DNA of 64,000 bases from Filifactoraceae bacterium (GTDB lineage Bacteria > Bacillota > Clostridia > Peptostreptococcales > Filifactoraceae): the NCBI GenBank assembly GCA_041853585.1, contig JBGZSM010000069.1, positions 867-64,866 of the forward strand, given 5' to 3'. The notes beneath the pieces were generated by a model. That model had not been told where the DNA came from. It saw only the letters and a list, made by a program, of their open reading frames with translations, and made no database searches. A program made the position numbers and the translations under genes. This document shows positions 5,454 to 60,750 of this stretch, in pieces; position 1 is the stretch's first letter, and every line of letters begins with the position of its first letter.

Positions 5454-6078
5454 CTTTTCTCCTTTTTCGAAAAACGCTTACCAAAATCGTAGGCATCCAT
5501 CGCCTTACCCGAATCACGAACATATCCTGAATAACCAAATCGGGATTGCAAAGCGATATCACTTCCTGCTTGGAGAGATACTTCGCCATGCCTGTCGTCG
5601 TCTTGGTCAAGGTGAATGCGATTTTGTCATACCAATTGTTAACCGAGCCATGCGCCAGTATGAGCAGCCCGTCCTCTTTCAAAAGCGTCGTCATATCGCG
5701 CACCGCCTTTTGCTGATTCTCATAATAGGGCAAGGAATGTGTGCAGGTGATGATGTCAAATCGCTCCCCGATGCTCAAAAGTTCTCCGACATCCTTGAGC
5801 AAAAATTTGGCAGCGGTATTTTTTTGCGTCGCGACATCAATCATCCCCTGCGAATAGTCGATGCCGAGTAGGGAAACATCCTTTCCGAAGCGCTGCTCAA
5901 TATCCACCAAAAGCTGCCCCGTTCCGCAGCCGATGTCGAGCAGCTTCTTCCATTCCTCTGACCGGTATTTTGCAATCGTTGAGAGCACCGCTTCTCTCGT
6001 TACGGATAAAGAATATTTTTGCATCCACAACCGCTCGTAGCGTCTCGACCAGTAATTCCAAATTTTTTTATTCGACAT
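5434..6078 (-). CDS. Class I SAM-dependent methyltransferase
   Basis: Motif I LLDIGCGTGQL, with a downstream FDIITCTHSLPY segment. It overlaps both neighbours (1 nt and 20 nt). Confidence 0.75.
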   Translation of the reverse strand: MSNKKIWNYWSRRYERLWMQKYSLSVTREAVLSTIAKYRSEEWKKLLDIGCGTGQLLVDIEQRFGKDVSLLGIDYSQGMIDVATQKNTAAKFLLKDVGELLSIGERFDIITCTHSLPYYENQQKAVRDMTTLLKEDGLLILAHGSVNNWYDKIAFTLTKTTTGMAKYLSKQEVISLCNPDLVIQDMFVIRVRRWMPTILVSVFRKRRKDADSVD

Positions 6079-7448
6079 CAGTCCAAATACATCTTTCTCA
6101 GCAAGTATCGCGACAGCATTCTTTTGAAATATTTCAAATCCAAAAAGTCATACAGCCCCGCCTTGCGTGCTCTCTTGTAAAGTTTCATAAACAAATCGTA
6201 ATAATGACGATAGAATTGCTTTTTCGTCAAATTTTTCGGCTCGAGCACGAGATGTAAAAAATCCCAGTCCTCAATATTGTCCGAGATGATTTCATCCTTG
6301 TATTCTTCATACAGCGGCGTGCCCGGAATCGGTGTGAAAATCGAAATCGTGACATGCATCACCTGATTTTGAACAACCCAATCGTAAATTCTGTCAAAAT
6401 CCTCCTTGGTCGCTTCGACACCGACAATCATCAGCGCAATACATTCGCCGCCCGCTTCCCGAATGACGCGCACCGCCTGCTCATTGTTGGTTACGGAAGT
6501 TCGCTTATTGTACGCGAGCAATTCTTTGTCGCTCGTCGCTTCGAGTCCGACCAAAAAATATTTGAATCCGATATCGACAAGCGCTTGGACGATTTCTTTA
6601 TTTTGTGACACGAAATCGGCTCGGGCGTAACAAGTGTAGGTTTTTTGAATTCGATTCTCTTTGACCAGACGAATGAACTCCCACAGTCTTTTTTTATCCA
6701 CCAAAAAATCATCATCGACGATTTGAATATTATCGACCTCTATCCCGCGAAGCTCCTCGATGACCAAATCCAAATCGCGCACCTGATAGCTGCCCTGATT
6801 GAGCAAGGTGCAATAACAGAATTTGCAATCGAAGGGACAGCTGAACGATGTCTTGAGCGTCGCCATCGGCGTCATATCCAAATATCGAAATCGATGCTTA
6901 TGCTCGTAGAAAAAACTTCGCTCGGGAATCGGCAAGCTGTTGATATCGACTCGCTCATACGGATTGACAATCCAATTTCCCGATTTATCCCGATGACAAA
7001 GCCCGTTGATTTCCGATGGAGAAATCGCCGGCTTCACTTTCTTTTTCAGAGATTCAATCATCCTTATCAAGTCAACGAAGCCGTCCACCGATTCGCTGCG
7101 TACGATAAAATCGATGTTTTCATCATAGAAACGCTGATAATTCAGCTGCGCATGGACTCCTCCGACCAGCGTGACGATGCTCCTGCGAAACTTTTTCGCT
7201 TCGGCAAACATTCTCTTCATCACATTTTCATGAGTCAGATAGCCGGTGATGGCGACCACATCGGGATCGTATTTTTTTAATACCTTTCTAAAAGGCTTGT
7301 TCTCACAAATATAGTCAAAGATATAATCTTCGTAGCCTGCCTGCATCAAGCCCGTATGCAAATACTCCAACTCCAAAGGCTCATTGTCAAGCATGCCTGT
7401 AAAACTCAATTTATTCGGTGCCGGTGGTCTTACCAAGAGCACTTTCAT
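6078..7448 (-). CDS. B12-binding-domain radical SAM protein (paralog 2)
   Basis: MKVLLVRPPAPN...DVVAITGY...GGVHA, followed by TSFSCPFDCKFC. The start at 7448 was chosen from the RBS aaaagga. Confidence 0.8.
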   Translation of the reverse strand: MKVLLVRPPAPNKLSFTGMLDNEPLELEYLHTGLMQAGYEDYIFDYICENKPFRKVLKKYDPDVVAITGYLTHENVMKRMFAEAKKFRRSIVTLVGGVHAQLNYQRFYDENIDFIVRSESVDGFVDLIRMIESLKKKVKPAISPSEINGLCHRDKSGNWIVNPYERVDINSLPIPERSFFYEHKHRFRYLDMTPMATLKTSFSCPFDCKFCYCTLLNQGSYQVRDLDLVIEELRGIEVDNIQIVDDDFLVDKKRLWEFIRLVKENRIQKTYTCYARADFVSQNKEIVQALVDIGFKYFLVGLEATSDKELLAYNKRTSVTNNEQAVRVIREAGGECIALMIVGVEATKEDFDRIYDWVVQNQVMHVTISIFTPIPGTPLYEEYKDEIISDNIEDWDFLHLVLEPKNLTKKQFYRHYYDLFMKLYKRARKAGLYDFLDLKYFKRMLSRYLLRKMYLD

Positions 7449-7476
7449 AATATCCATCCTTTTCCAATTGAAGCGA

Positions 7477-8313
7477 CTACCGATGCTCTTCGCTCGGCAC
7501 CAAGTCAATCACCACATATTCCGGACGATTGTAAAAACGCGGAATTCTTGTCGATTCTCTCGCCAATCCGCGACTGACAATCATCTTGTAATTCTCAAAT
7601 TCATACAGCCCGCCCGCATATTTCGGAAACAATCCCTGATTCGGTGCGAGCAATCCGTTGAGCACACCGGGAATTCGCCATTGTCCTCCATGAGCATGCC
7701 CTGCCATCAAGAGATCAAAATCGCGATATTGCTCGTAGCGCTCCGGACGATGAGTCAGCAGAAGCGAATAGATGTCGGGCTCGATTGTTGACTTGGCTTT
7801 TTCCAGTTGATTTTGCCAAGCGGACTCCCCGATATCGACATCATCGATGCCGAACAAATTGACGCGCTCTCCGCGAATGTTCAGTTCCACTTTGTCGCCT
7901 TCAAGCACCGTGATATTGTAATCGAGAATCGCAGATTTTAATCGAAGCAGCTCCTTTGTCCAACATTCATGATTGCCCGACACATAGTAACTCGGATATT
8001 TTTCTCCCGCCCAGCTCAAAAATTCCCATGCCTTGTCCTCTGGCAAATTGTCGTCGATGATATCGCCCGCGAGGAGCAGCACATCGGGTCTGCTCTGCTC
8101 GATGGCTTCGGTCAAAGTATGCTGTTTTTCTCCGTAATTGCAGCTGTGCAAATCCGCAACGAGCGCAATTCGAATCGGTTTTTGAATTCTTGAATCGGCG
8201 ATGGTGTAGTTCACCACCTCAAGTCGTTGGTCCAATCCCATGCCCAGCAGCAAGGCAGCCGCTCCGGCAACCACCAACATTCGTTTATTCTTTCTTCTTT
8301 TGTTCTTCTTCAT
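7477..8313 (-). CDS. Membrane-anchored metallophosphoesterase (calcineurin-like, YkuE/YaeI type)
   Basis: N-terminal basic plus transmembrane segment, then the motifs IALVADLH, AGDIID, SGNHE and GHAHGGQ. Confidence 0.8.
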   Translation of the reverse strand: MKKNKRRKNKRMLVVAGAAALLLGMGLDQRLEVVNYTIADSRIQKPIRIALVADLHSCNYGEKQHTLTEAIEQSRPDVLLLAGDIIDDNLPEDKAWEFLSWAGEKYPSYYVSGNHECWTKELLRLKSAILDYNITVLEGDKVELNIRGERVNLFGIDDVDIGESAWQNQLEKAKSTIEPDIYSLLLTHRPERYEQYRDFDLLMAGHAHGGQWRIPGVLNGLLAPNQGLFPKYAGGLYEFENYKMIVSRGLARESTRIPRFYNRPEYVVIDLVPSEEHR

Positions 8314-8354
8314 CTTGCTCCCACTCTGCTGAATCTCATTTTGCGAAATTCAGC

Positions 8355-9779
8355 TTATTCCATTTCCAAATCGCGCCAATTCGCTTTGATGGCTCTTTCT
8401 CTTTTTCCGGCAGTCCAAAAATTTTTGATATAGACCGAAATCAATGTGTTGAATCCGAAAAGCATGCGCATCGTGTTGCCGATTGGAAATGCTTTGACGG
8501 TATACTTAACGGAATGTAAATTGAGATTAACGCCGAAAGTGAATTTAAGCACTTCCCAATAGTATCTGCGCAAGCTCATTTTGGACGGCATGATAAGCAC
8601 ATCGCCGAAATTCCATTTGTCATAATCCGTTTCGTCGTAGAGCAGTCGGCTCTTGTACTGCTCAAAAAGCGGGGTGAGCGGGTGCGGATTGAGCGGCGAA
8701 AAGGTCAGCAAGTCCGGCTTGAGCAATTTTTTGTACGCATTGAGCTTTTTGAAATCCGATTTATCCCAATCCGGATGCAAAATGAAGGAGCCCCAACATG
8801 CGATATTATGCGCGCGCAAAATTTCGGTCGCCTTCAAATTCTCGTCCACTGTCGCCGATTTATTATATTTTTTAAGCTGCGCATCGTCAAAGCTTTCATA
8901 GCCGACGATGACCGCAGTCAATCCGTTTTTTCTCAGTCTTGTAAAAAGTTCCGGCTTCTCTAAAATCGAATTGACGGAGCCGTAGCAGATATATTCTTTG
9001 CGAATATTTTTTTCTTCGAGCAGCTCGCAAAAACGCTCCAAACGCTTTCGATTGATTAAAAAGTCATTGTCGCAAATCATGATATAGGGCTCTTCCAAAT
9101 CGCCCAGCTGTTTGACGATGTCCTCAATCGGCACCTCGCGAAGCGCTGCTCCTTCAAGTTTCCAGCGCACGCAAAATTCGCAGCGATTTCGACAGCCGAA
9201 GGAAGTTTGAATCACCGCGCAGGGCTGAAATCCGACATAGCGATATTCCTTGCGATAGCGCTTGGTCGATTCGGTGTCCGGCACGATGTATTCGTTGAAA
9301 CAAAATTCCTTTTCATTTATAAAATCAAGCTCTTGACTGAAAATCCCTTCAATTGCTTCCGTCAGTTTTTCTCCCGTTTCAATTTTTTGCATCAATTCCT
9401 TGTAATTGGCTCTGGTCGTTGATTTGAATACATGATCGACCGACTCGTCAAAAAACGAATTCGGATAGACCGTCGCCTGCACGCCGCCGACGATGACCGC
9501 CGTATTCGGATTGTGTTTTTTTACGATTTTTGCAATGCCGAGCACATTTTCCACATCGGTGCATTGCGATGTAATCCCGACCGCATCGGGTAAAAATTTG
9601 TCCAAGTAGGCTTCGACTTTCGCATTCGTCTCCACCATAAAATCGGCGAGCAATACCTCATGCCCCTGCTCTTTCAAAATCGTCGAAACACATTCTATTC
9701 CGAGCGGCTCACCGAACAGAAAGTTTTTAACCGTTGTAATCTTCTTGTTGACCCAAGGTCTTATCAGTAAAATTCTCAT
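8355..9779 (-). CDS. B12-binding-domain radical SAM protein (paralog 1)
   Basis: MRILLIRPWV...DAVGITSQ...GGVQA, followed by TSFGCRNRCEFC. RBS gaggaaggga precedes the ATG at 9779. Confidence 0.8.
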   Translation of the reverse strand: MRILLIRPWVNKKITTVKNFLFGEPLGIECVSTILKEQGHEVLLADFMVETNAKVEAYLDKFLPDAVGITSQCTDVENVLGIAKIVKKHNPNTAVIVGGVQATVYPNSFFDESVDHVFKSTTRANYKELMQKIETGEKLTEAIEGIFSQELDFINEKEFCFNEYIVPDTESTKRYRKEYRYVGFQPCAVIQTSFGCRNRCEFCVRWKLEGAALREVPIEDIVKQLGDLEEPYIMICDNDFLINRKRLERFCELLEEKNIRKEYICYGSVNSILEKPELFTRLRKNGLTAVIVGYESFDDAQLKKYNKSATVDENLKATEILRAHNIACWGSFILHPDWDKSDFKKLNAYKKLLKPDLLTFSPLNPHPLTPLFEQYKSRLLYDETDYDKWNFGDVLIMPSKMSLRRYYWEVLKFTFGVNLNLHSVKYTVKAFPIGNTMRMLFGFNTLISVYIKNFWTAGKRERAIKANWRDLEME

Positions 9780-9837
9780 TCCCTTCCTCACTTTATTCAC
9801 TACTCCCGTTGCATTGTATCATATTTTTGTAGAATTT

Positions 9838-10800
9838 TTATAGTTTCATACAATGAATTTCACTTCTCTCCCCTCGATGCTCCAATCGCCTAGCAAGAAT
9901 ATCCAAAATTTTTCGCGGTAAATACCGGGAAGCGATATGCAGATGCAGCGCCTTCTCCCGCGCACCGACACGCAATTTCGAATATGCCGTCGTCTGCCCG
10001 AGATGAATTTTGTCAAACCCTTCGCCGAGTTTTAAAATCTCCAGCAGAATATTTATATACAAATCATATTTTTTGTTCTGAGCATGTGCAAAGCCGCAAA
10101 AGAGAAAAATCAGCTCCTTGTCGAAGGCTCTGGTTTGGAAAAAACCGATGAGCTCCTTTTTTTCATTTGAGATTCGATACAGATTCGCATCGCATCTTTT
10201 GAAAAAATCGATGCCGAGCTTTTCCAGCTTCCCCTCGGAGCGCTCATAGACTTCTTCATAAAAAGCATAGAGTTTCTCATCGAAATTTGACGGATGAATG
10301 GATTCAAACACAAGATTTTTTCCTCTGTCCATCGCCTTACGAATTCGGTAGCGATAGTGGCTGCGCATCTTGCTCAAATAAATTTCAAAATCGTCCACCA
10401 CCGTGTGAAAACTCGGCAGGGTCTTACCCTTGGCAAGCCGAAGTCCTCCATCGGTGTTAAGCACGAGCAGCAGCGCAAAGCTCGAAAGATATTTTTCCAA
10501 TATCGGCAAATTCTCCCTCGGGCAAGCATACCCGGCGCTCGCGACCGAAAGCGGAATGCCGGCAATTTCTATCGGCAAACGAAGCGATAATGTTTGGCTG
10601 AAGGTCAGAATATCCAATTTCAAACGATAAGTAATGAGCAGGATTTGATATTTTTCATGGAAATGATATCGCTGATGACAGGGATTGACCTCCTCCATAA
10701 AACTCAAAAATTCTCTTTTCAAAAAAGGATTGCTCGAGCATTCATCCCAACGAGCCGGCAAATCCTTCGCGCTGTCAAAAATCACAAATTCCGTCTTCAT
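9838..10800 (-). CDS. FemAB-like / DUF482-type GNAT-fold acyltransferase
   Basis: N-terminal W..C..NPFLKREFLSFMEE signature, and a C-terminal half resembling the BioF2/FemAB-like acyltransferase fold. ATGA overlap with the upstream GNAT gene. Confidence 0.5.
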   Translation of the reverse strand: MKTEFVIFDSAKDLPARWDECSSNPFLKREFLSFMEEVNPCHQRYHFHEKYQILLITYRLKLDILTFSQTLSLRLPIEIAGIPLSVASAGYACPRENLPILEKYLSSFALLLVLNTDGGLRLAKGKTLPSFHTVVDDFEIYLSKMRSHYRYRIRKAMDRGKNLVFESIHPSNFDEKLYAFYEEVYERSEGKLEKLGIDFFKRCDANLYRISNEKKELIGFFQTRAFDKELIFLFCGFAHAQNKKYDLYINILLEILKLGEGFDKIHLGQTTAYSKLRVGAREKALHLHIASRYLPRKILDILARRLEHRGERSEIHCMKL

Positions 10801-11867
10801 AGATTGATTTCAAACACTTTGTAATGCTTGCTTTCTTTTTTTATAAAATGAGTTGTCACATTTTTGGAGCTTGAATTGTCATCCAATATCCAGCCCGACT
10901 CGATGAAACGGTATTTTTCTTTGTTGAGCTCATAGCAATGCTTGAGCAGCGCATAGAGCGCCGCCGAGCGACGGTACTTCGGGATGATGCCGAATTCCGT
11001 AAACTTCAGCGTATCAATCAGCCCCGGCAGGAATCGGCTCTTCAAAAAGGCCATCAATCCCAGTTCCTGTCCTCCGCTGATGAGCTGATTGAAATCGGGA
11101 TACCAAAGAATGAATCCGACCGGCAAATCATCCTTGTAGGCGAAAAGCAAATTTTCCGGTTTCAAAAAGAGTTTGTATTCATTAAACAGCTCGATATCTT
11201 CCGCCTCTCTGCTCTCATAATAATATTCATGCTCGGCGAATGCGAGATTGTTGATTCTCCCGTAAATCTTGGCCGTCTTTTCGATATGTTGAAAATCCGC
11301 ATGGCGAACTTCAAACTGCGCCATTCGTTGCTCCAGCGCGGGCGATGGATTGAGCTTGATGTCCTCAATCAACCCTTTGTAGCTCACGAGATTTTTTGTC
11401 GTCGTCGCCAATTTTTCCAAATGCTCGGTATAATATGCGGGATTGTACGCGCTGCCGATGCTCTGCACTTTGTCAAAATCGCTCGCAAGCAGACCCAAAC
11501 CATAGTTGACATGAAAATTGAGTCCGATGAGAATGCTTCGAATCCGTCGTTCTTTTGCAAATTCCTTGGCGAAATCGACGATGGCTTTGGCAATCTCAAA
11601 ATCATTTCTCATTTCCAAAAAAGCGATTTGCAACTTGTCCGCCATTCTGTCAATCACCGCCAAAAATGCCATGCCTACGATTTGATTATTTTTCTCCGCC
11701 ACAATCGGCACGATTTCGGATTTTTTCTGAATCTCCATCTTTCCGGCGAACAATGCTTTCAGCGTTCTGCTCTGATGGTCCCGATAATTTGAATTGCCTC
11801 GATAGATTTCCTTTTGAAAATGCAGCATCGCTACAAAATCCTCCGGCTTTGCGAATCGTACAATCAT
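10797..11867 (-). CDS. Long (~356 aa) GNAT-family acyltransferase, paralog of 26913-27977
   Basis: Shared architecture and the YNP.YY motif with the second copy. GNAT-like C-terminal half (GIIPKYRRSAALYALL). First gene of the radical SAM operon. Confidence 0.6.
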   Translation of the reverse strand: MIVRFAKPEDFVAMLHFQKEIYRGNSNYRDHQSRTLKALFAGKMEIQKKSEIVPIVAEKNNQIVGMAFLAVIDRMADKLQIAFLEMRNDFEIAKAIVDFAKEFAKERRIRSILIGLNFHVNYGLGLLASDFDKVQSIGSAYNPAYYTEHLEKLATTTKNLVSYKGLIEDIKLNPSPALEQRMAQFEVRHADFQHIEKTAKIYGRINNLAFAEHEYYYESREAEDIELFNEYKLFLKPENLLFAYKDDLPVGFILWYPDFNQLISGGQELGLMAFLKSRFLPGLIDTLKFTEFGIIPKYRRSAALYALLKHCYELNKEKYRFIESGWILDDNSSSKNVTTHFIKKESKHYKVFEINL

Positions 11868-16406: not shown

Positions 16407-17477
16407 TTATTTTGTCTTTGATTTCTCTTTCAGCCATTTGGAAATAAGTGGAGCGACTTCTTTTTTCGCTTTGGAACTCACATACATTCCGATATGTCCC
16501 GTCGGTATTCCGTGAGTCTCAATATCTTTCGTTCCGACATATTTTGCAAGCGGAATACTTGCAGCCGGCGGCACGATATGGTCTTTTTCCGCATATACAT
16601 TGAGTACGGGCATTGTGATATTTTTCAAATCCACCTTCGCATCGCCAATCATCATCTTGCCTTTAATCAATTTGTTTTCTTTGTAAAGGTCATTGATGAA
16701 TTGTCGAATTGTTTCTCCCGCTTGACCCGGACTGTCAAAAATCCAGTTCTCCATACGCAGGAAGTTGTTCATCACTTCCGGTTTGTCAAAGTCATCAATG
16801 AGGTTGAGATATTTTCCAACCATCAGCGAAATCGGCTTCATTGTCAAGAATCCGTTGTTCATAAAATCGCCCGGAATGACTCCGTACGCATCGACCATCT
16901 TGTCAATGTCCAGATATTTTCCCCATCGGAACAACAATCCGTCATCCGTTGAGAAATCCACCGGTGCAACCATCGTTACCAACGCATTGATATTTTGCGG
17001 ATGAAGTGAAGAGTACATTAAAGAGAAAGTTCCGCCCTGACATACGCCGAGCATATTGATTTTCTCTTTTTTGGAATGTGCCTTGACCGCCTCGACCGCA
17101 TTATCGATATAGCCTTGAATATAATCTTCCAAAGTCAGATATCTGTCTTCCGCTGTCGGATATCCCCAGTCGATAATATACAGATCCTGCCCGTCTCTGA
17201 GCATATTCTGCACAAAGCTCGTATCTTCCTGCAAGTCCATCATGGTCTCGCGATTTACCAAAGCATAGACAATCAGAGTCGGTACTTTGTTGATGCTTCG
17301 AACAAGCGGTTTGTATCGATACACTTTCATCTTGTCTTCCGAATAAATCAATGTTTTCTCGGAGAAACCCGGCTCCGGGTCTCCTGCATGAAGCATCGTT
17401 TCAAATCCCTCAAGCAATTTTTTCTGAGTTTGTATGCTTTCCTCAAAGCTTTTCTTCCAATCAAATGTTTTGTCCAT
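16407..17477 (-). CDS. phaC: Class III poly(R)-hydroxyalkanoate synthase catalytic subunit
   Basis: About 355 aa alpha/beta hydrolase with the lipase-box-like GVCQGG (Cys nucleophile) and a conserved C-terminal H (TGHIGMYVS). Confidence 0.8.
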   Translation of the reverse strand: MDKTFDWKKSFEESIQTQKKLLEGFETMLHAGDPEPGFSEKTLIYSEDKMKVYRYKPLVRSINKVPTLIVYALVNRETMMDLQEDTSFVQNMLRDGQDLYIIDWGYPTAEDRYLTLEDYIQGYIDNAVEAVKAHSKKEKINMLGVCQGGTFSLMYSSLHPQNINALVTMVAPVDFSTDDGLLFRWGKYLDIDKMVDAYGVIPGDFMNNGFLTMKPISLMVGKYLNLIDDFDKPEVMNNFLRMENWIFDSPGQAGETIRQFINDLYKENKLIKGKMMIGDAKVDLKNITMPVLNVYAEKDHIVPPAASIPLAKYVGTKDIETHGIPTGHIGMYVSSKAKKEVAPLISKWLKEKSKTK

Positions 17478-17507
17478 TAAAAATTCTCCCTTCAAGATAC
17501 ACATAAT

Positions 17508-18806
17508 CTACTCCTGAGTCTGAACCGGAACAACGGCCTGCGCTTTTTTCATTGCTTTCAGTTCTTTTTTCAATTCGTAAATCGTTTTATACAGGCTGTC
17601 AATCTCACTTCTTGTCACGATTGGTGTATCCGAGAGATATCTTTCAACCAATTTTTGCATCTCGATTTTGTAATCCATCGCCGCAGAAGAAAGTTGACCC
17701 AACATCTTCGCATATTCCGGAGTGGCAAAGTAAGAATCGAAAACCCCTTCCAATTCATTGGACCAGTAAGTGTAGAACTCATTGAAAGTTTTTGGCTGTG
17801 TTCCCTGCTCCGCCATTTCAAGATACTTTTTAATCATATCATCCAGATTCTCATTTTGCACCGCAAAAATTCTGGAAGTGAAATCCGTACTGAGCAATAC
17901 CATATCCACATAGGTGTCAAAAGCCTTGCTCTGTTGCTCAATAAGCTCCTTGTTTATGCCCAGCGAAGGAGAAAGCAAAATCGCTCCGAAAGTTCTGTCA
18001 AACTGTGCTCGCCAAAGCTCAAAGAACTCGCCGAGTTTGGTTTTGTCCGTCAGCACACCTTCAACGAACAAATCACGAAGCTGTTTTGCATTGCTTGTCC
18101 ACGGCTCAAAGAAATTGCCATTTGTTTTTGCATACGCTTTGAACAGCTCAAACGGATCTTTAGCAAAAGATTGGAACTCCTGAGGAAGCATCGGCAATAC
18201 CATATCTTTGAACATCACATCATATTTTTCAGCTAAAGTGGATGCATATTTTTTCACTTCATCGGAAATCGGTTTGATATGCGTATCTTCCAACTCTTTC
18301 CAGAACTTATATACATTCAGATAATATGTGTTCGCCTGCATCATTTTTTCCAGTAAATCTTTCGCCGCCGGGGTAAATGCCTTACCCATCTCCAGCGGAT
18401 TGTAATATCCTCTCAGCTTGTCAAAATATTCGTGGATGCTCTCCTGAGACTCTGCCCATTTGCTCATATCTACAAATGGAAAAGCGCCGGACTTTCCGAA
18501 GTTGGAAAAATCGGCCATATATTTGGACATCTGCTCCATATAATTCTTTTGCATATCCACGAAAAACTCAAATGCTTTCGGGTCAAAAGCCGGATTCTTA
18601 AAGTAATCCGTAAAAATCTTGCTCAACTCCGCCGGATTGTTTGTCCCCATCGTTTCCATAAATTTCTTTTGCATTTCAAAAAAGTCGCTCATAGATTTTG
18701 TATAAGGATTCTCGGAAACATTGGACATCTTTTTATACATATCCTGCCAAGATTCCATCATACTCTTTTGGCTATCCATCATCGTTTTGAAAAAATCATT
18801 GCTCAT
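17508..18806 (-). CDS. phaE: PhaE-like subunit of class III PHA synthase
   Basis: Immediately upstream of phaC. A repetitive F/W/M-rich helical protein with a C-terminal coiled segment (RSEIDSLYKTIYELKKELKAMKK), as in PhaE. Confidence 0.5.
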   Translation of the reverse strand: MSNDFFKTMMDSQKSMMESWQDMYKKMSNVSENPYTKSMSDFFEMQKKFMETMGTNNPAELSKIFTDYFKNPAFDPKAFEFFVDMQKNYMEQMSKYMADFSNFGKSGAFPFVDMSKWAESQESIHEYFDKLRGYYNPLEMGKAFTPAAKDLLEKMMQANTYYLNVYKFWKELEDTHIKPISDEVKKYASTLAEKYDVMFKDMVLPMLPQEFQSFAKDPFELFKAYAKTNGNFFEPWTSNAKQLRDLFVEGVLTDKTKLGEFFELWRAQFDRTFGAILLSPSLGINKELIEQQSKAFDTYVDMVLLSTDFTSRIFAVQNENLDDMIKKYLEMAEQGTQPKTFNEFYTYWSNELEGVFDSYFATPEYAKMLGQLSSAAMDYKIEMQKLVERYLSDTPIVTRSEIDSLYKTIYELKKELKAMKKAQAVVPVQTQE

Positions 18807-18818
18807 AGCTACCTCCCA

Positions 18819-19226
18819 TTAAAGTTTCTTCATTACAGCTTGTCCCGAGATGACCTCCGTCTGTCCATTATTAGTCGTTACTGTCGTCTTCATTACGACA
18901 ATCTGTTTGTCATCCCTTTTCGATAACACCTCTACCTCAGCCGTACATTCTTCACCGATATAAACCGGCTTCAGAAATTTCAGCTCTTGGCTCATATAAA
19001 TTGAGCCCTCTCCCGGAAGCTGCGTTCCAAGTGCGGAAGAAATCAGCGATGATACCAAAATACCATGCACGATATTCTTCTTGAAAAATGTTTTTTCGGC
19101 ATATTCTTTATCCAAGTGAATTGGATTTTTGTCCGTCGAAAGCTCCGCAAAATTTGCTACATCCTCTGCCGAAAAAGCTTTCGTAACCTGCGCCCTGTCA
19201 CCAACTTTAATGTCTACATAATTCAT
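18819..19226 (-). CDS. phaJ: MaoC-like (R)-specific enoyl-CoA hydratase
   Basis: SAEDV..FAELS.D.NPIHLD...A..T.F...IVHG hydratase motif. RBS ggaaggggg precedes the ATG at 19226. Confidence 0.7.
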   Translation of the reverse strand: MNYVDIKVGDRAQVTKAFSAEDVANFAELSTDKNPIHLDKEYAEKTFFKKNIVHGILVSSLISSALGTQLPGEGSIYMSQELKFLKPVYIGEECTAEVEVLSKRDDKQIVVMKTTVTTNNGQTEVISGQAVMKKL

Positions 19227-19766
19227 TAGATTACCCCCTTCCGTTTTTATTTTCAATTCATCTATTTTTTCAAAATGCTACCTACCTGCGTCTTGAATTG
19301 AAATCCCGATAAAAAATTCTATGATATATTTAAAAATATAGCTTGTTCTTGATTTATGTCATCAGCACTTAACGAGTTTATATAAATTTATTATACCCAT
19401 TCCAGCACAATTTTCAAACTAATTCGAAGAAACAATTTTGTTTTTATTCTTCATCAATCAAGTTTTTTAAAGTGATTTTTCATATATGGTTGAAGTATAG
19501 ACCTTATTTTTAAAAAAATCATATACTATGTTTGGTAAAATTGTAGATTTTACATAGATTTTTAATGTTCAATAAAATATTTCGACCGAATCTTATTAAA
19601 GTTTATCTCTTATAGACAAAAAGAGCCCCATCGCTCAGATAGGCTCTCCATTTTCGCTAAGGCGAATAAAAAATGAATTTTTACTCAGATAGAATTTTAA
19701 GTTTCAAACTCTCAGCGCAAACAAAACTCATCCTCAAGGATTTTTTGATTGTTTCTTGAAAGAGTT

Positions 19767-53894: not shown

Positions 53895-54377
53895 TTATTT
53901 ATGATAGATTTCGTTCGCATTGATTTTGCACGCACGATAAATTTGCTCCAACAACATCACACGAAACAGTTGATGCGGAAAGGTCATTTGGCTGAAACTG
54001 ATTTTCATATCGCCACGCTCCCTCACCGCATCACCCAGTCCGAGACTTCCGCCAATCAACAGCGTCAAATTGCTCACGCCTTGAACCGCTTTTTGCTCAA
54101 ATAGTTCGGCAAAACCCTCCGAAGTCATCGCCTTTCCCTCCGGCGACAACAAAATGACAAATTCATTTTCTTTGATTTTGGAAAGCATGCGTCTCGCTTC
54201 CGCATCCTTGACCTGCTCTTCTTCCTTCGCCGATGCCTTTTCCGACAATTTTTCTTCCGGCAATTCCAAAACACTCAGTTTGGCAAAACGACTCAAACGC
54301 TTTTGATATTCCTCACTCGCCGCCTGCCAAAAACTCTCTTTCAATTTCCCTATCGCTATAATTTTTATGCTCAACAT
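53895..54377 (-). CDS. rlmH: 23S rRNA (pseudouridine1915-N3)-methyltransferase
   Basis: IKIIAIGKLKE...YQKRL...LLIGGSLGL...SFSQMTFPHQL.RVML.EQIYRA. Confidence 0.85.
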   Translation of the reverse strand: MLSIKIIAIGKLKESFWQAASEEYQKRLSRFAKLSVLELPEEKLSEKASAKEEEQVKDAEARRMLSKIKENEFVILLSPEGKAMTSEGFAELFEQKAVQGVSNLTLLIGGSLGLGDAVRERGDMKISFSQMTFPHQLFRVMLLEQIYRACKINANEIYHK

Positions 54378-54766
54378 TATTCGTAATCATCCTCATAAAT
54401 CGGTTCGTAAAAATCTTCTTCATAATCATACTCGAATCGTCGTTGATTTTGCCGATGCTCTTCCTCCCAATACGCTTTGCGCTGAGGATTTCCGGATTGC
54501 TCGAACCGCTCCATAAGCTCAGATTGCTCTTTGAAATACTGCTCCTCTTTCATCTGCTCAATCACTGCATCAATATGACGCTCCAACATCGGATTCGGCT
54601 TCTTGTCCAAATCACTCGCGCCCTCCGGCATTTTTCCCGCCGGATTTGGCAATGCATCCTCTTTTTGATGCCCGCGCATATCCATTGTGTTTTCAGATTC
54701 GTCGACAGCTTTGGCTTGAACTTGCTTCTCTCTATCGACGCCTTCATTTTTCTCTATCTTTTTCAT
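54377..54766 (-). CDS. Acidic hypothetical protein
   Basis: RBS gagaggag precedes the ATG at 54766. 129 aa, E/D/Y-rich C-terminus. Confidence 0.45.
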   Translation of the reverse strand: MKKIEKNEGVDREKQVQAKAVDESENTMDMRGHQKEDALPNPAGKMPEGASDLDKKPNPMLERHIDAVIEQMKEEQYFKEQSELMERFEQSGNPQRKAYWEEEHRQNQRRFEYDYEEDFYEPIYEDDYE

Positions 54767-54911
54767 CACAAACTCCTCTCTCAAGTAGTTGTTCTTACTT
54801 TGATTATACGATTTTTCAGGCGCAATTACAAGCCAAAGCGAACGCAAATAAAAAGTCACTGCTCAAAACTCCTTGGACTGTCATTTCAAATCAGGACTTT
54901 TCAAACAGTGA

Positions 54912-55538
54912 CTATCTTTCGTTAAGTCGAATGGAGAATGTTTTTTCCGCCACCTCAAACGCTTTCTCAACCGGAAGGCAATAAGTGTTTTCCTTATCCT
55001 CCTCCGCAATACCGTTATAATACTCTTCCATGTGTTTCTTTGAACCAAAGAAATTCATGATATTTCAACAATTTGCCGCCCAATTTTCTACTTTTGATAA
55101 ATCAACATGGATGGCACATAATGAGTGTGGCTGATACTCCGTCAATTCCCCATTGCAAATTGAAACTTGGATTTTCTCGCCGGAAACGGGACATACCGAC
55201 TCAATATTGATATCCTGATTGAATACAAATGCCGAACCCATCGCATCAATTGCGCACATTGAATAGAATTCTCTTCCGTCCTTAAGCTTTACATGATGAC
55301 TGGTCGGTAAATTGGACACCGGATATGCAAATAGAATCTCTTCGCCGTCCGTTACAATAGTTTCCTTCTCTATCAGGCTATCGATGATACTGCGATTATC
55401 TCCGCAAAATTTTTCCTCCGTAAGCGGTTTTCGTTTCTCAATCATCGCATTGAGCAATTCGATGCGAAGCTTACTTTCTTTTTCATCTAATTTCGCATCA
55501 ATGTTAATGACCTTTTCTAAATCAATTTTCGTATTCAC
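54912..55538 (-). CDS. MerB-like organometal lyase, candidate selenoprotein (in-frame UGA at 55065-55067, C-U motif)
   Basis: FYSMCAIDAMG aligns with MerB YAWCALDTL (Cys/Asp). The track ORF stops at ...WAANC-TGA, but the same frame continues for 50 codons: NIMNFFGSKKHMEEYY...PVEKAFEVAEK. That matches MerB [9 protein letters not shown]...VHEAFGLGQ. GTG start at 55538 overlaps the ATPase stop. Confidence 0.75.
55035..55053 (-). promoter_or_regulatory. SECIS-like hairpin for the MerB-like UGA
   Basis: Minus strand: tttcttt-GGTTC-aaagaaa, starting 11 nt after the TGA. Confidence 0.6.
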
Positions 55539-56290
55539 ACAATTACTCCCTTTTCTGAAATTTTTTGAACCAGTTTCATGCAATAGTCCTTATATTGCTC
55601 ACAGTAGCGATTGCGTGGTCTCGGAAGATTATTTTCCAATTCATATACAATCTTTCCTGCATTCGTTGACATCAAAATAACTTTATCACTCAAATATACT
55701 GCCTCATCCACATCGTGCGTTACCATGAGTGCGGTAATCTTTTCTTCACGCCAAATATTTTCAATCTCCATCTGGAGCGATTGGCGCATCATCAAATCCA
55801 ATGCTCCAAGCGGTTCATCCATCAATAAAACCTTCGGCTTACTTGCCAAAGCTCGAACCAAAGCCGTTCTCTGTTTCATTCCACCTGATATCTGATGAGA
55901 ATATAATTCTTCATGTCCTTTTAATTTAGAAATCTCCAACAGATATTCCAGCCTTTGCCGTTGTTCATTATCCGGAATCTTCATTTGTTTCATCGGGAAC
56001 AAAATATTGTCTTTGACCGTCATCCAAGGGAACAACGCATAGTTCTGGAATACAAATGCTCTATCGGGATTCGGACCATTTATTATGTCGCCATCCAATT
56101 TCACCATTCCCGAATCGCTTTTTTCAAATCCGGCAATTATTGAAAGCATTGTTGTTTTTCCACATCCGGATGGACCGAGTAATGTTACAAACTGCCCCTC
56201 TTCTAAAGTGAATGAAATATTTTCCAGCACTTTCTTATGTTTGTTTTGATTTTTAAATGTCTTTGATATATTATTTACTTCCAGTTTCAT
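55535..56290 (-). CDS. ABC transporter ATP-binding protein (nitrate/sulfonate/taurine NitT-type)
   Basis: GPSGCGKTT, ISGGMKQR and LLMDEPLGALD motifs. The ATG at 56290 forms an ATGA overlap with the permease stop. Confidence 0.85.
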   Translation of the reverse strand: MKLEVNNISKTFKNQNKHKKVLENISFTLEEGQFVTLLGPSGCGKTTMLSIIAGFEKSDSGMVKLDGDIINGPNPDRAFVFQNYALFPWMTVKDNILFPMKQMKIPDNEQRQRLEYLLEISKLKGHEELYSHQISGGMKQRTALVRALASKPKVLLMDEPLGALDLMMRQSLQMEIENIWREEKITALMVTHDVDEAVYLSDKVILMSTNAGKIVYELENNLPRPRNRYCEQYKDYCMKLVQKISEKGVIV

Positions 56291-57054
56291 GATACAAATC
56301 TCCACTTGGTAAGATATCTATTTGTTATTTGTAAAAGAATATCAATCGCATATCCTATAATAGCTGACATAAACATCAGCGCAATCAGCACATCGGTTTG
56401 CATCATCGATTGTGCTTCCACCATTGAGTAGCCCAGACCGGCACTTGTCGCTATGAACTCCGCTCAGATTACTGACATCCATCCGCTGCCGATTGCCAAT
56501 CTCGCTCCTACTAGAATATCCGGTAACGCTCCGGGTATCACCACATTCCAAAAAATGCTCCATTTCCCGGCGCCCATACTTTTAGCTGCATTATAATAGT
56601 CTTTGGAAATATTTGATACCCCTTGATTCGTATTCAATATTACTTGGAACAGACCATTGATTGCAATCATGAAAAGAGTTGGTCCATCTCCAATTCCCAA
56701 CCAGATAATTGTAAGAGGAACCCATGCCATCATCGGAATTTGACGAAGAGAATTCATCAGGCCACCAAAAACATAATTAAATTTTTTTGATAAGCCCATT
56801 CCGATTCCTAAAGGGATACCGATGATAAGTGCAATTAACCATCCTTTCAATACGCGTACCATAGTAATTCCAACATTGGTCATAATTTTTAAATCAAAGA
56901 TACTTTGAAAAAATGCTTTTGCCGTTGCATACGGCGTCGGTAAAAGTAATGGAATGGCGATTCTTTTTGCCGCAATGTACCATCCAAGCAACAAAATGCA
57001 GTAAAAAGCTAATTTCAAAATAGCATCTTTATAGTTGATTTTTAGATTCTGCAT
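56287..57054 (-). CDS. ABC transporter permease (SsuC/TauC type) interrupted by an in-frame TGA at 56464-56466; Sec-recoded or a pseudogene
   Basis: ...AIGSGWMSVI-TGA-AEFIATSAGLGYSMVEAQSMMQTDVLIALMFMSAIIGYAIDILLQITNRYLTKWRFVS, all in one frame. The gene ends in an ATGA overlap with the ATPase start. Confidence 0.6.
56427..56445 (-). promoter_or_regulatory. SECIS-like hairpin for the permease UGA (weaker)
   Basis: Minus strand: agtgcc-GGTCTG-ggc(t)act, starting 18 nt after the TGA. It overlaps the conserved AGLGY codons, so it may be coincidental. Confidence 0.35.
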
Positions 57055-57818
57055 TATTTTATTGTCAGTAGTTTTACTTTCCAATCTTTTATCCTCTCCT
57101 CCTTTAAGTTCGTATAATTTGCAATTTGTCTTTGCATTTCCAACGAATCTTCATTAAGAATATTCACCGCTTTGTTGTAGGCTTTAACAAAGTTTTTGTA
57201 TTCCTTTGTTCCGATATAGTTTTTATCCGCAACCAATACAAAAGTGTCATTAAGCATCGGATAGTCGGTCTCTCCACTCAAGCTTCCACTCTTGGCAACA
57301 TCTAAAAAAACAGCATCCACTTGACCGCTTTCATAAGCATAGCCCAATGCATTACGACCGGTTTGATGAATTTCTATTGTTTTTTCAAATTTCGCCCTTA
57401 AATATTCTTCATGGAACATTTTATTTTCTTGAATTGCAATGCTCTTTATTTTGTCATTCCTTTTTATAATGACATCCGTATTTTGAAATAGCGGACATAC
57501 AACTACAAGGTCTGAATTCGATTGTGTAAGATTACTTGCCGCATCTTTACATAATATCGCCATGGAATAAATATCTGTGCTCAATGCCCATTGAGCCGTT
57601 TTTGCTCAACAGTCCCGAATGAAGAACGGTTTTACTTTCCCCTCCGTGTAAATTTCGTTGTGAATCATATAATCCACCACAAAACCGGACATATCATCCG
57701 AGACCCCTATTGCTACTTGATTTTCAGTATTGTTTTTTTGATTCAAATTTTGATGGTAAACAAAGAAACTCATGCCTATCAACACAAAAATCAAAAATAC
57801 ACTACGATTCAATTTCAT
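57054..57818 (-). CDS. Membrane-anchored periplasmic-binding-like protein, candidate selenoprotein (in-frame UGA at 57606-57608, C-U motif)
   Basis: Track ORFs 57606-57842 and 57054-57584 are in the same frame: ...KVKPFFIRDC-TGA-AKTAQWALSTDIYSMAILCKDAASNL... The signal anchor is present only in the upstream piece. TAATG overlap with the permease start. Confidence 0.65.
57579..57596 (-). promoter_or_regulatory. SECIS-like hairpin for the binding-protein UGA
   Basis: Minus strand: gctcaat-GGGC-attgagc (perfect 7-bp stem), starting 9 nt after the TGA. Confidence 0.6.
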
Positions 57819-58914
57819 TTGCCTTTTTTTCAAATTCCTCAAAAGTCATTCCTACCGGAAAATCCTTTTCAATTTTCTCTTGAATGTATTTGTCAAAATC
57901 ATCCAGTCCCGCGTCGTTATAGATATCTCTTTCTATAACATCCTCAACCGGCGGTAAAGTCTTCACCAAATTGTATTTTTTATACACCTCATAAGCATGA
58001 TTAAACTGCTTTTCATTTAACTGCCAAGTAAGCGTTCTTCCTTCTTCATTGCATTTTTTATAAATGGTCATCAATGATACTTCGTACGGCACATTATAGT
58101 ATTGTGAAAAAATCTCTGCCGCTTTTTTGGGATGTTCATAGATATATTTAATACTGTCCTGATGCGCCTTCAAAAGTTCGACAGCAAGTTCTCTATGCTC
58201 TTTAATGAAGTTTTTGTTCAATGCAAATCCGCAACAAATCCCCATTTCATCATCCATGTCACGATAAGTTGCCATTATTTTCCCAACCTTTTGATGCTCC
58301 GCCATCGAGCCCCAAGGGTCACAACAGGTATATCCTTTTATCTGGCCGGTACTCAAAGCCAAAAAACTGTCCGAATCCGAGCCGGTATTAACCAATTCAT
58401 AGTCTTCTGCTTTTGTTGAGAGATTAAGAATCTGAGAATATCCCGCAAGCCAATCCTCACTTGTTGAGGGGGCGCCCATCGCAACTTTTTGACCATATAA
58501 ATCTTCCGGTTTTTTAATATCATTGGACACAACCAGATACATTGAGCCGCCGATATGATTGTTTGCCGCATAAACAATCGGAGAACCTTCTCCGTTTGCC
58601 GCAACCAATCCTCGCGCGCCGATATATCCGGCATCCATTTGTCCTGCAGCCATCGCCTGTGGAACTTTGCCGTTTCCGGTCAACTTTACTTTGAGATTAT
58701 GGGCTTTATATATTCCCGCCGCTTCTCCAACCGGTCCTGCAACCATGTGGTCACAATTGTAGTAGCCCAAATTAATCTCATAATCACTGTTCACATCCGT
58801 CTGTTCCGGCGGTGTGCTGCTATTGGAATCTCCGCCTTGATTGCTTTTGCTGCATCCAAAAAATCCCGTTACCAAAATCATGCTCAATAATATAGTTGCT
58901 ATTTTTCTTTTCAT
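57802..58914 (-). CDS. Cys-rich ABC substrate-binding lipoprotein (NMT1/SsuA-like)
   Basis: Lipobox VTGFFGC. NMT1-like fold pattern with unusual Cys clusters: YYNCDHM, GYTCCDPWG, MGICCGFAL. Confidence 0.7.
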   Translation of the reverse strand: MKRKIATILLSMILVTGFFGCSKSNQGGDSNSSTPPEQTDVNSDYEINLGYYNCDHMVAGPVGEAAGIYKAHNLKVKLTGNGKVPQAMAAGQMDAGYIGARGLVAANGEGSPIVYAANNHIGGSMYLVVSNDIKKPEDLYGQKVAMGAPSTSEDWLAGYSQILNLSTKAEDYELVNTGSDSDSFLALSTGQIKGYTCCDPWGSMAEHQKVGKIMATYRDMDDEMGICCGFALNKNFIKEHRELAVELLKAHQDSIKYIYEHPKKAAEIFSQYYNVPYEVSLMTIYKKCNEEGRTLTWQLNEKQFNHAYEVYKKYNLVKTLPPVEDVIERDIYNDAGLDDFDKYIQEKIEKDFPVGMTFEEFEKKANEIES

Positions 58915-58922
58915 ATTGCCTC

Positions 58923-59396
58923 CTAACAACAATTGTCCATATCCTCACTAAACAAATCTCGAACTGTCATATCCGCTTGCATGCGATAAATGGCATATCC
59001 GTAATTTCCATCTTTCGAGCCTGATATTATAAATTCGATAGGCTCTTTTTCATCAATGTTTTTAAACTGAATATCTACATTCTCTCTTGGGGCTAAAAAC
59101 TTTTCCGTCGCTTGATATTGTGTATTATCTTTATTGAGCAGTACTACCGCATAATTTTTTTCTTCTTCTTGAGGATGGTATATGACCAACAAATCTTTTT
59201 TCCCGTCATCATTCACATCTTCACTTTTTGCCATCAGCAAATCATAATTTTTATTTGTTTCTAAAAAATGAATGAGGTAAGGATGGTCTTTTTCTCCAAA
59301 ATCATTATTTTCCTGAATGGATTTGTTTCGACTATAAAGCTGAAAGCCTACCACAAAAATGACGAAAACTGCAATAATTTTTTTCAGTTCTTTCAT
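58923..59396 (-). CDS. Membrane-anchored protein with an FG-GAP-like DxDxDG motif and a C-terminal Cys-Cys
   Basis: N-terminal transmembrane segment, DVNDDGKKDLLV, and a C-terminus ending ...DMDNCC-TAG. ATGA overlap with the upstream permease gene. Confidence 0.5.
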   Translation of the reverse strand: MKELKKIIAVFVIFVVGFQLYSRNKSIQENNDFGEKDHPYLIHFLETNKNYDLLMAKSEDVNDDGKKDLLVIYHPQEEEKNYAVVLLNKDNTQYQATEKFLAPRENVDIQFKNIDEKEPIEFIISGSKDGNYGYAIYRMQADMTVRDLFSEDMDNCC

Positions 59397-60478
59397 TGCA
59401 ATCTCCTTTTCTCTATATAACTCATGATTCTATGATACATTGCCAGCGCAAAGAATATCAGAATAACGGATGAAGCTGCATAACGAAATCCCGTCGGGAA
59501 AATAACTATCAACCGATTGGCACTTTGAATTGAATAGTCGATTGTATCAATACTTATCTGCGGTTTATAACTCGGCATCAAAATTAAATTCGTAATATAG
59601 CCTAGAACAACAGCCATCGCCGTAACAACTCCACCGTAAATGATTGCCGATCGCTTCCCTATCATTCGATAAATACTGATTAGTTCCGCGATATTGGTAG
59701 ATGCGCCCGCAATCAAAAAAGTTACTGCAGAACCCGGTGACGCTCCCGCTGCAATCAGGGCAGCAATAAACGGAATATGACCGACCGCACAAACATACAT
59801 TACCGTTGCCAATATCGCTACATTTAATAATGACAATGCACTTGGATTTCCTAAATATTTCTGAATTACGGATGATGGAAAAGTTACCATAATGAATCCG
59901 GCTACAAACATCCCTGTAACAACATATTTACTTATTACTAAAGCAAAATCGTTCACCATCCAAACAAATCCCGATTTTATTTTTTCAGGTATGCTTCTAG
60001 TATCCATCCGCTCACTCATCTCGATATTTTGAGAATAAGCCTGTGGATAATACAATTCTTTTCCGGCGGTGCTGTTTGCAATCCATCCAATCATCATCGG
60101 AAAAATTAAACCAATTACAAAATATATTGCGGTCAGTTCTTTCCCAAATAATCCGTACGACAAAATCAGCGCAATCGGATTGATAACCGGCGTGGATGTC
60201 ATAAAACAAAGTACCGGACCGATATAAGCGCCGGAATAATACATACTGATTCCCAACGGAACGGTTCCGCAACTGCAAATAGGCAAGACAAATCCCGACA
60301 GTGTAACTTTCATCAAAGCTGAAAAACTCTTATTCCCCAAATGATGATGCAGCTTTTCGACAGGAATTAAATCATGCAGAATCGCTGCGATGAGGTAGCT
60401 GATTACAATCCAAGAAGACGCGGTGTTCAATAAATTAAAAGAAACGCGAAGAATATTCCAAAGATACTCTCTCATCAT
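59393..60478 (-). CDS. ArsP-like / DUF318-type permease
   Basis: Polytopic protein with two homologous halves and an LPICSCGTVPLG motif in the first half, typical of this permease family. ATGA overlap with the thioredoxin-like gene. Confidence 0.65.
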   Translation of the reverse strand: MMREYLWNILRVSFNLLNTASSWIVISYLIAAILHDLIPVEKLHHHLGNKSFSALMKVTLSGFVLPICSCGTVPLGISMYYSGAYIGPVLCFMTSTPVINPIALILSYGLFGKELTAIYFVIGLIFPMMIGWIANSTAGKELYYPQAYSQNIEMSERMDTRSIPEKIKSGFVWMVNDFALVISKYVVTGMFVAGFIMVTFPSSVIQKYLGNPSALSLLNVAILATVMYVCAVGHIPFIAALIAAGASPGSAVTFLIAGASTNIAELISIYRMIGKRSAIIYGGVVTAMAVVLGYITNLILMPSYKPQISIDTIDYSIQSANRLIVIFPTGFRYAASSVILIFFALAMYHRIMSYIEKRRLQ

Positions 60479-60750
60479 CCATCTCCTCCTTCATTCAATT
60501 TTGAAACGGCGTCATCAATAGCTCGGTCAATCATCATTTTGTTGGGATTTTTAATAAATATTTTTTCATCAATTATCAAAGTTCCAACATAAATCATGCC
60601 ATACTTTTTTATGTATTCCATATCCCTTCCTGCATAATACAATTTTAAATCAATTTTTTCTTTGTATCTGGCTGCTGAAGATTGAACCAATCTTCCAATC
60701 GAATCACAGGATGGTCATGTATTCACAAATTCCACTTTTACTTTTTTCAT
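60475..60750 (-). CDS. Small thioredoxin-fold protein (redox-active disulfide protein 2 / Thioredoxin_3 type), candidate selenoprotein with UxxC (UGA at 60715-60717)
   Basis: RBS aagagga precedes the ATG at 60750. Translation: MKKVKVEFVNT-TGA-PSCDSIGRLVQ...KYGMIYVGTLIIDEKIF. The track ORF 60475-60690 is the same frame downstream. The UPSC sits exactly where this family carries CxxC. Confidence 0.7.
60677..60695 (-). promoter_or_regulatory. SECIS-like hairpin for the thioredoxin-like UGA
   Basis: Minus strand: gaagatt-GGTTC-aatcttc (perfect stem), starting 19 nt after the TGA. The loop is identical to that of the MerB-like hairpin. Confidence 0.6.

Follow-up and report, generated by a model that had tools for sequence, protein, structure and literature searches.

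[quoted passage not shown] The operon is carried by an anaerobe that is uncultured and Peptostreptococcaceae-like, and the closest related genome is a Peptostreptococcaceae MAG with 99% identity (JAUNKE010000041). The SaoL family, its CU motif and the SAO operon were described by Haft and Gwadz (bioRxiv 10.1101/2022.07.06.499078; J Bacteriol 2023, 205:e0025922). The window SaoL is an ortholog of this published family, already known and in conceptual terms nothing beyond Haft and Gwadz (2023).

The SaoL gene, its family and its active site

The first-pass annotation, made by reading the sequence, described an open reading frame at 55065-55583 (minus strand) that ends at ...VENWAANC followed by TGA at 55065-55067, and a continuation of the same frame beyond it. 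Both points hold when the sequence is re-read, the continuation being NIMNFFGSKKHMEEYYNGIAEEDKENTYCLPVEKAFEVAEKTFSIRLNER, about 50 codons that run up to a TAG at 54912-54914. The true start of SaoL is most likely the GTG at 55538 (MNTKIDL...), which is favoured by the GTGA overlap with the stop of SaoA and by the N-termini of all close homologues (MNT.I.L). The main features of the gene are as follows.

54912..55538, minus strand: SaoL coding sequence, 208 aa including Sec158, with a GTG start at 55538 and a TAG stop at 54912-54914
55065-55067, minus strand: Sec158 codon, an in-frame TGA, as the second residue of C-U; Cys157 lies at 55068-55070
55245..55256, minus strand: codons of Cys95-Ala-Ile-Asp98, with Cys95 at 55254-55256 and Asp98 at 55245-55247, equivalent to MerB Cys96...Asp99

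The read-through product matches the Pfam MerB family (PF03243) with E=1.6e-28 over residues 75-201, an alignment that spans the TGA and covers profile positions 2-125 of 126 (99.6 bits versus a gathering score of 27). The peptide 3' of the TGA aligns with the last 40 positions of the model, and similarity to MerB thus continues through the post-TGA peptide to residue 201. The NCBIfam model NF040728 ("MerB-like organometallic lyase SaoL") is also matched above its equivalog cut-off (164.8 versus 140 bits), with a score that derives from the N-terminal 157 residues only, as the model stops at the Cys before the TGA. That it ends at exactly this residue indicates that it was built while the proteins were still annotated as truncated. 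Together with the MerB fold of a homologue model described below, these matches uphold the initial description of the protein as a MerB homologue. It is not a canonical MerB. The equivalog cut-offs for that enzyme (NF033555 / NF009710; EC 4.99.1.2) are not reached (65.3 versus 193 and 57.5 versus 200 bits), the canonical triad Cys96/Asp99/Cys159 is incomplete in that the first two residues are present and the Cys159 position is Sec (TGA), and the neighbouring genes are sao genes, rlmH, a glycosyltransferase gene and pepA rather than those of a mer operon (merR, merA, merT/P).

The N-terminal catalytic Cys and Asp that had been noted in the motif YSMCAIDAM are present, and Cys95 and Asp98 align with MerB Cys96 and Asp99. 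The first-pass annotation had also placed C-U on the Cys159-Cys160 pair of MerB, and this was off by one residue. When 48 full-length SaoL sequences were combined into a profile in which X stands for Sec, this profile gave a gap-free alignment to MerB residues 66-176 and placed Sec158 on Cys159 and Cys157 on Phe158, the register also seen in the published superposition, in which Sec162 of Clostridioides difficile SaoL corresponds to MerB Cys159 (bioRxiv 10.1101/2022.07.06.499078). The same profile places Sec158 on Cys165 of MerB2, the sole Cys of that loop, and the phmmer alignment with MerB2 is likewise ungapped with the same correspondence. A pairwise phmmer alignment to MerB R831b (1S6L) that set CC on CC was rejected, as it needs a one-residue gap where the profile and MerB2 alignments are ungapped. 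Because Sec158 falls on Cys159, Sec would replace the catalytic metal-binding Cys itself, and the alignments strongly support a predicted metal-binding catalytic triad of Cys95, Asp98 and Sec158, plus the vicinal Cys157.

The predicted MerB fold of the window SaoL is strongly supported by an AlphaFold model made for the homologue P0014 (39% identity to the window SaoL; pLDDT 87.9, pTM 0.83). The top 11 PDB matches of this model are all MerB or MerB2 (E 1.8e-12 to 2.1e-8, TM 0.54-0.74), with 5c17 the best (E=1.8e-12, TM 0.74) and with 5c17 and 3f0o at TM 0.70-0.74, and they extend over about 195 of 208 residues, the post-TGA part included. MerB of plasmid R831b (PDB 3F0P, 3F0O, 1S6L) therefore has the same fold as the SaoL homologue's model (TM about 0.7) and shares Pfam PF03243 with SaoL, which keeps the Cys96/Asp99 equivalents and a chalcogen ligand at the Cys159 position. 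It differs from SaoL in that SaoL has Sec for Cys159 and has its neighbouring Cys on the N-terminal side (the Phe158 position) and not at position 160, while identity is about 15-18% and SaoL is accompanied by genes for an importer and for an efflux pump rather than by a mer operon. The closest solved structure is that of MerB2 from Bacillus megaterium (PDB 5C17; sequence E=4.7e-13), whose Cys165 is not Sec and is preceded by Thr rather than Cys, and which is the product of a mercury-resistance transposon gene.

Reading of the in-frame UGA

At the given base composition, an open extension of 50 codons has a chance of roughly 5%, which is weak evidence by itself. That the extension is not due to chance follows from the Pfam match across the TGA, from the occurrence of TGA at this column in 70/80 related loci, where the peptide downstream of it is conserved as well, and from a conserved hairpin. 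A search of 5.8 billion proteins gave 24 relatives, 22 of which were aligned, and each of these 22 database proteins either ends at the pre-TGA Cys or shows W at the next position, followed by NIMNFF... (W is printed in P0014, P0015 and P0017). The codon in the Sec column was read in 80 related genome loci spanning Bacillota, spirochaetes, Desulfobacterota, Actinomycetota and Chloroflexota, with the following result.

TGA: 70/80 loci, 67 with a preceding Cys and 3 from Chloroflexota with a preceding Thr
TGT/TGC: 9/80 loci, in Neisseria, Spirabiliibacterium, Staphylococcus simulans and Gaiellaceae
Not aligned: 1/80 loci (L075)

Loci with TGA have an open frame beyond it and keep N[IV]MNFF, and in the Cys-form relatives the reading frame is continuous through the Sec column. 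Cys95 and Asp98 are invariant in 80/80 loci and also in 23 homologous proteins. The survey of Cys versus TGA among homologues, the hairpin and the MerB alignment all support the earlier proposal of a Sec at the C-terminal active-site position.

Gene calls in public databases continue to cut short the SaoL of this lineage at 157 aa (P0001) and its SaoP at 206 aa, and they most likely split SaoB and SaoT likewise. Taken at face value, the 157-aa call would make the TGA a true stop that yields a truncated MerB-like protein, with the downstream 48-50 codons either non-coding or part of a small ORF from the ATG at 55058, which lies three codons past the TGA. We regard this as very unlikely, since 70 loci from different phyla keep the downstream frame and N[IV]MNFF, the downstream peptide fits the end of the Pfam MerB model, and Cys-containing relatives run uninterrupted past the Sec column; moreover, the truncated product would be without the Cys159 equivalent and would lose the strand and the helix at the C-terminal end of the fold. 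Still less credible is that the organism uses table 4 or 25, alternative codes under which TGA specifies Trp or another standard amino acid. The operon has genuine TGA stops in SaoA, SaoP, SaoE and SaoT, and hence TGA is no general sense codon here; non-TGA relatives carry Cys and never Trp, and a position-specific hairpin accompanies TGA only. The W printed at the Sec column in the three proteins named above, which speaks for such a code, is best explained by automatic table-4 gene calling on short contigs. We attach just as little weight to the idea that the gene is a pseudogene or that the assembly contains a sequencing error: in two loci (L046 and L055) the frame is indeed lost directly behind the TGA, but a TGA in the same column is found in 70 independent assemblies, cultured isolates included, and it recurs in a 99%-identical locus (L001) and in independent Logan contigs.

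The recoding of the UGA as Sec is further supported by the RNA structure that follows it.

55029..55059, minus strand: SECIS-like hairpin with core stem UUUCUUUG / CAAAGAAA and apical loop GUU at 55035-55053, and an outer CAUG/CAUG stem

The core is an 8-bp stem that extends from +15 to +33 relative to the U of the UGA. In the window it folds at -9.7 kcal/mol (z -1.68), and stability alone is thus marginal. Within 45 nt 3' of the TGA the hairpin is present at a fixed register in nearly all TGA loci, and it is absent in 9/9 Cys-form loci. In an ungapped alignment of 64 sequences, pairing within a 7-bp stem is kept in 83.9% of cells, and covariation is seen as 24 double-change cells in 5/7 pairs, a level reached by 0/500 shuffles and the best among the slid controls. 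The hairpin arms overlap conserved coding sequence (FF...KK), and their conservation is therefore partly protein-derived. On these comparisons there is strong support for a predicted SECIS-type hairpin, 11 nt downstream, that directs recoding of the UGA at 55065-55067. At gathering thresholds Rfam gave no match in the window, and no curated SECIS model was matched; none of selA, selB, selD and tRNA-Sec was found within the 64-kb window (Pfam annotation of 50 window ORFs; Rfam). The occurrence of four TGA/hairpin sites in one operon nevertheless provides indirect support for a Sec insertion machinery in the host.

Two groups of loci in the survey deserve separate mention. In the Chloroflexota MAG loci (L060:7463, L068:6310 and L071:7463) SaoL has T-U-T where all others have Cys-Sec-Asn, which shows that a vicinal Cys next to the Sec is not universal. 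Haft and Gwadz describe CU and one CC form only (bioRxiv 10.1101/2022.07.06.499078). Read from the sequences, T-U would mean that the vicinal Cys is dispensable and that Sec alone is the key ligand. A TGA-containing SaoL also occurs on a 1.7-kb contig binned as Candidatus Woesearchaeota (DPANN; L024), which is most likely binning contamination and not an archaeal SaoL.

The SAO operon and its other UGA-containing genes

SaoL is the last gene of an eight-gene minus-strand operon, SaoT-E-C-X-B-P-A-L, and each of its seven neighbours scores over its NCBIfam equivalog cut-off.

55535..56290, minus strand: SaoA, ABC transporter ATP-binding subunit (NF040729, 397.6 bits versus 360); its stop overlaps the SaoL start, and it is without an in-frame TGA
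56287..57084, minus strand: SaoP, ABC permease (NF040733, 368.4 bits versus 295); TGA at 56464-56466 (...GWMSVI-U-AEFIATSAG...); start at TTG 57084 or ATG 57054
57054..57842, minus strand: SaoB, substrate-binding protein (NF040727, 194.9 bits versus 140); TGA at 57606-57608 (...FFIRDC-U-AKTAQW...); start uncertain, 57842 or 57818
57802..58914, minus strand: SaoX, second substrate-binding lipoprotein (NF040735, 485 bits versus 300); CC motifs YTCCD and GICCG, no Sec
58923..59396, minus strand: SaoC, signal-peptide protein (NF040734, 159.8 bits versus 80); C-terminus ...DNCC-COOH
59393..60478, minus strand: SaoE, efflux transporter (NF040736, 459.2 bits versus 325); CSC motif; related to SO_0444 Cu/Zn efflux and ArsP
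60475..60750, minus strand: SaoT, thioredoxin-like protein (NF040730, 107.5 bits versus 65); TGA at 60715-60717, motif U-P-S-C
54846..54913, minus strand: long hairpin, a probable terminator, followed by UUUUUAUUU (U-run), directly after the SaoL stop

For SaoP, SaoB and SaoT the Sec call is based on the local hairpins and the alternation of Sec with Cys. Among the related loci the ratio of TGA to Cys at the Sec column is 44/12 for SaoP, 32/23 for SaoB and 24/28 for SaoT, and every stop codon in these columns is TGA. Local hairpins with G-containing apical loops lie 3' of each TGA. That of SaoB is a 7-bp hairpin, GCUCAAU-GGGC-AUUGAGC, at +13 to +30 from the TGA (with an opposite-strand detection at 57579-57596), while SaoT has an 8-bp hairpin, GAAGAUUG-GUU-CAAUCUUC, at +23 to +41, with a compensatory stem change in the related locus L002. 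The whole-stretch MFE z-scores of the 60 nt after the TGAs of these three genes are no better than those of shuffles. Ungapped alifold across clades is weak for the same three because the register of the hairpin differs between clades. In the eight Brachyspira loci (L010, L012, L014, L016, L018, L021, L023 and L028) SaoL has TGA and SaoP, SaoB and SaoT all have Cys, a pattern that marks SaoL as the operon member that retains Sec most stubbornly.

The hairpin that follows the SaoL stop folds at -25.3 kcal/mol (z -3.30), and only 2/200 shuffles fold as well; it is a probable intrinsic terminator at the operon end. Co-transcription of SaoL with the importer genes SaoA, SaoP, SaoB and SaoX is strongly supported. 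Beyond SaoT there are 213 intergenic nt and then the divergent pepA. The flanks are of a housekeeping nature (rlmH, a GT4 glycosyltransferase and methionine/threonine biosynthesis), with no mer gene and no mobility gene beside the operon. Between SaoL and rlmH there is a highly acidic ORF of 160 aa (54377-54859, minus strand) that has no Pfam match and is called in a Logan contig (L081).

The operon is without SaoD, and among the scanned proteins of the 64-kb window there was no match to PF06050, which we take to be the Pfam family expected for double-cubane (8Fe-9S) proteins. Haft and Gwadz described a nine-gene SAO neighbourhood with Sec in SaoP, SaoB and SaoT and with housekeeping-type flanks; they noted that SaoD and SaoL are not universal in SAO loci, that double-cubane genes adjoin about half of these loci, and that SaoL is truncated at the CU, about 50 residues before its C-terminus (bioRxiv 10.1101/2022.07.06.499078). 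The operon in the window differs from the nine-gene set in the absence of SaoD, which the describing paper permits. Its SaoL resembles the published one in its TGA truncation in databases, its Cys/Asp/Sec triad, its place as the last gene after SaoA and its chromosomal, housekeeping-type flanks. The C. difficile protein has 213 aa with the CU at 161-162, as compared with 208 aa, a CU at 157-158 and 50 further residues for the window SaoL.

Proposed function and related systems

In the pathway that we envisage, an ABC importer formed by SaoA, SaoP, SaoB and SaoX would take up an organometal(loid), and the metal, by analogy with the chemistry of MerB, would have the thiolate of Cys95 and the selenolate of Sec158 as its ligands, bound between the two. 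The leaving carbon would then be protonated by Asp98, as in MerB, and the carbon-metal bond would be broken. The metal may be retained on the Cys/Sec pair and then undergo ligand exchange, possibly through Cys157 and SaoT, after which SaoE would export the metal handed over to it. The first-pass annotation had suggested that the enzyme is either a MerB that is hyper-reactive or a lyase with a different organometal(loid) as its substrate, and this matches a hypothesis already in print, the non-mercury substrate being an open hypothesis of Haft and Gwadz (bioRxiv 10.1101/2022.07.06.499078). We consider it possible, though less likely than not, that the substrate is not an organomercurial but another soft organometal(loid) that the Sec-bearing ABC importer takes in on purpose, and the operon would then serve anaerobic energy or cofactor metabolism and not detoxification. 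A 2026 review names the Sao families, and the literature yielded no experimental work on any SaoL.

A different role, as a MerB-fold selenoprotein that is not a lyase and instead provides high-affinity Cys/Sec binding and hand-off of a metal (or of selenium) within the transport system, seems unlikely to us, although several observations speak for it. The non-catalytic transporter subunits SaoB and SaoP have Sec too, and motifs of the type CC or CU come back throughout the operon; Haft and Gwadz themselves raise the matter of binding versus catalysis, and SaoL is lacking in 7/52 published SAO loci (bioRxiv 10.1101/2022.07.06.499078). However, the proton donor Asp98 is invariant together with Cys95 in all of the surveyed loci, which is expected for catalysis and not for mere binding, and the full geometry of the MerB catalytic triad is kept. 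A lyase function of SaoL is therefore the reading that we prefer.

The mercury-methylation protein HgcA offers a further comparison. Like SaoL it has a CU selenoprotein motif, in this case N-terminal, and it has been implicated in carbon-mercury chemistry in anaerobes. It differs in having an unrelated fold and in a corrinoid-dependent methyl transfer that forms, rather than cleaves, the C-Hg bond. HgcA is not present in the window.

In biochemical terms it is striking that a predicted carbon-metal lyase has Sec at its metal-binding catalytic position, and equally striking is the SAO operon, whose Sec-bearing ABC transporter subunits are to our knowledge the only ones known. The system is found in C. 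difficile and in other gut and oral anaerobes, and it is a good experimental target. The case also illustrates that a genuine selenoprotein can be recognised by nothing more than a reading of the sequence.

Other parts of the window contain genes of separate interest. The minus-strand region 2758-11867 has four B12-binding radical SAM genes (2758-4137, 4080-5453, 6078-7508 and 8355-9800) together with a SAM methyltransferase (5434-6078), a metallophosphoesterase (7477-8313) and two ORFs without a Pfam match, and it is possibly a cluster for a modification or for a natural product. On the plus strand at 147-2696, PAS (972-1379) and sigma-54 interaction (1422-2042) domains are found in separate consecutive ORFs flanked by more ORFs, and this looks like a sigma-54 activator fragmented by frameshifts, either as a pseudogene or through assembly errors. 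Finally, the minus-strand region 16407-19256 comprises an alpha/beta-hydrolase ORF (16407-17504), which we read as the class III PHA synthase PhaC, a PhaE subunit (PF09712; 17508-18806) and a MaoC-like dehydratase (18819-19256), and PHA synthase genes are an unusual trait for a Peptostreptococcaceae-like anaerobe.
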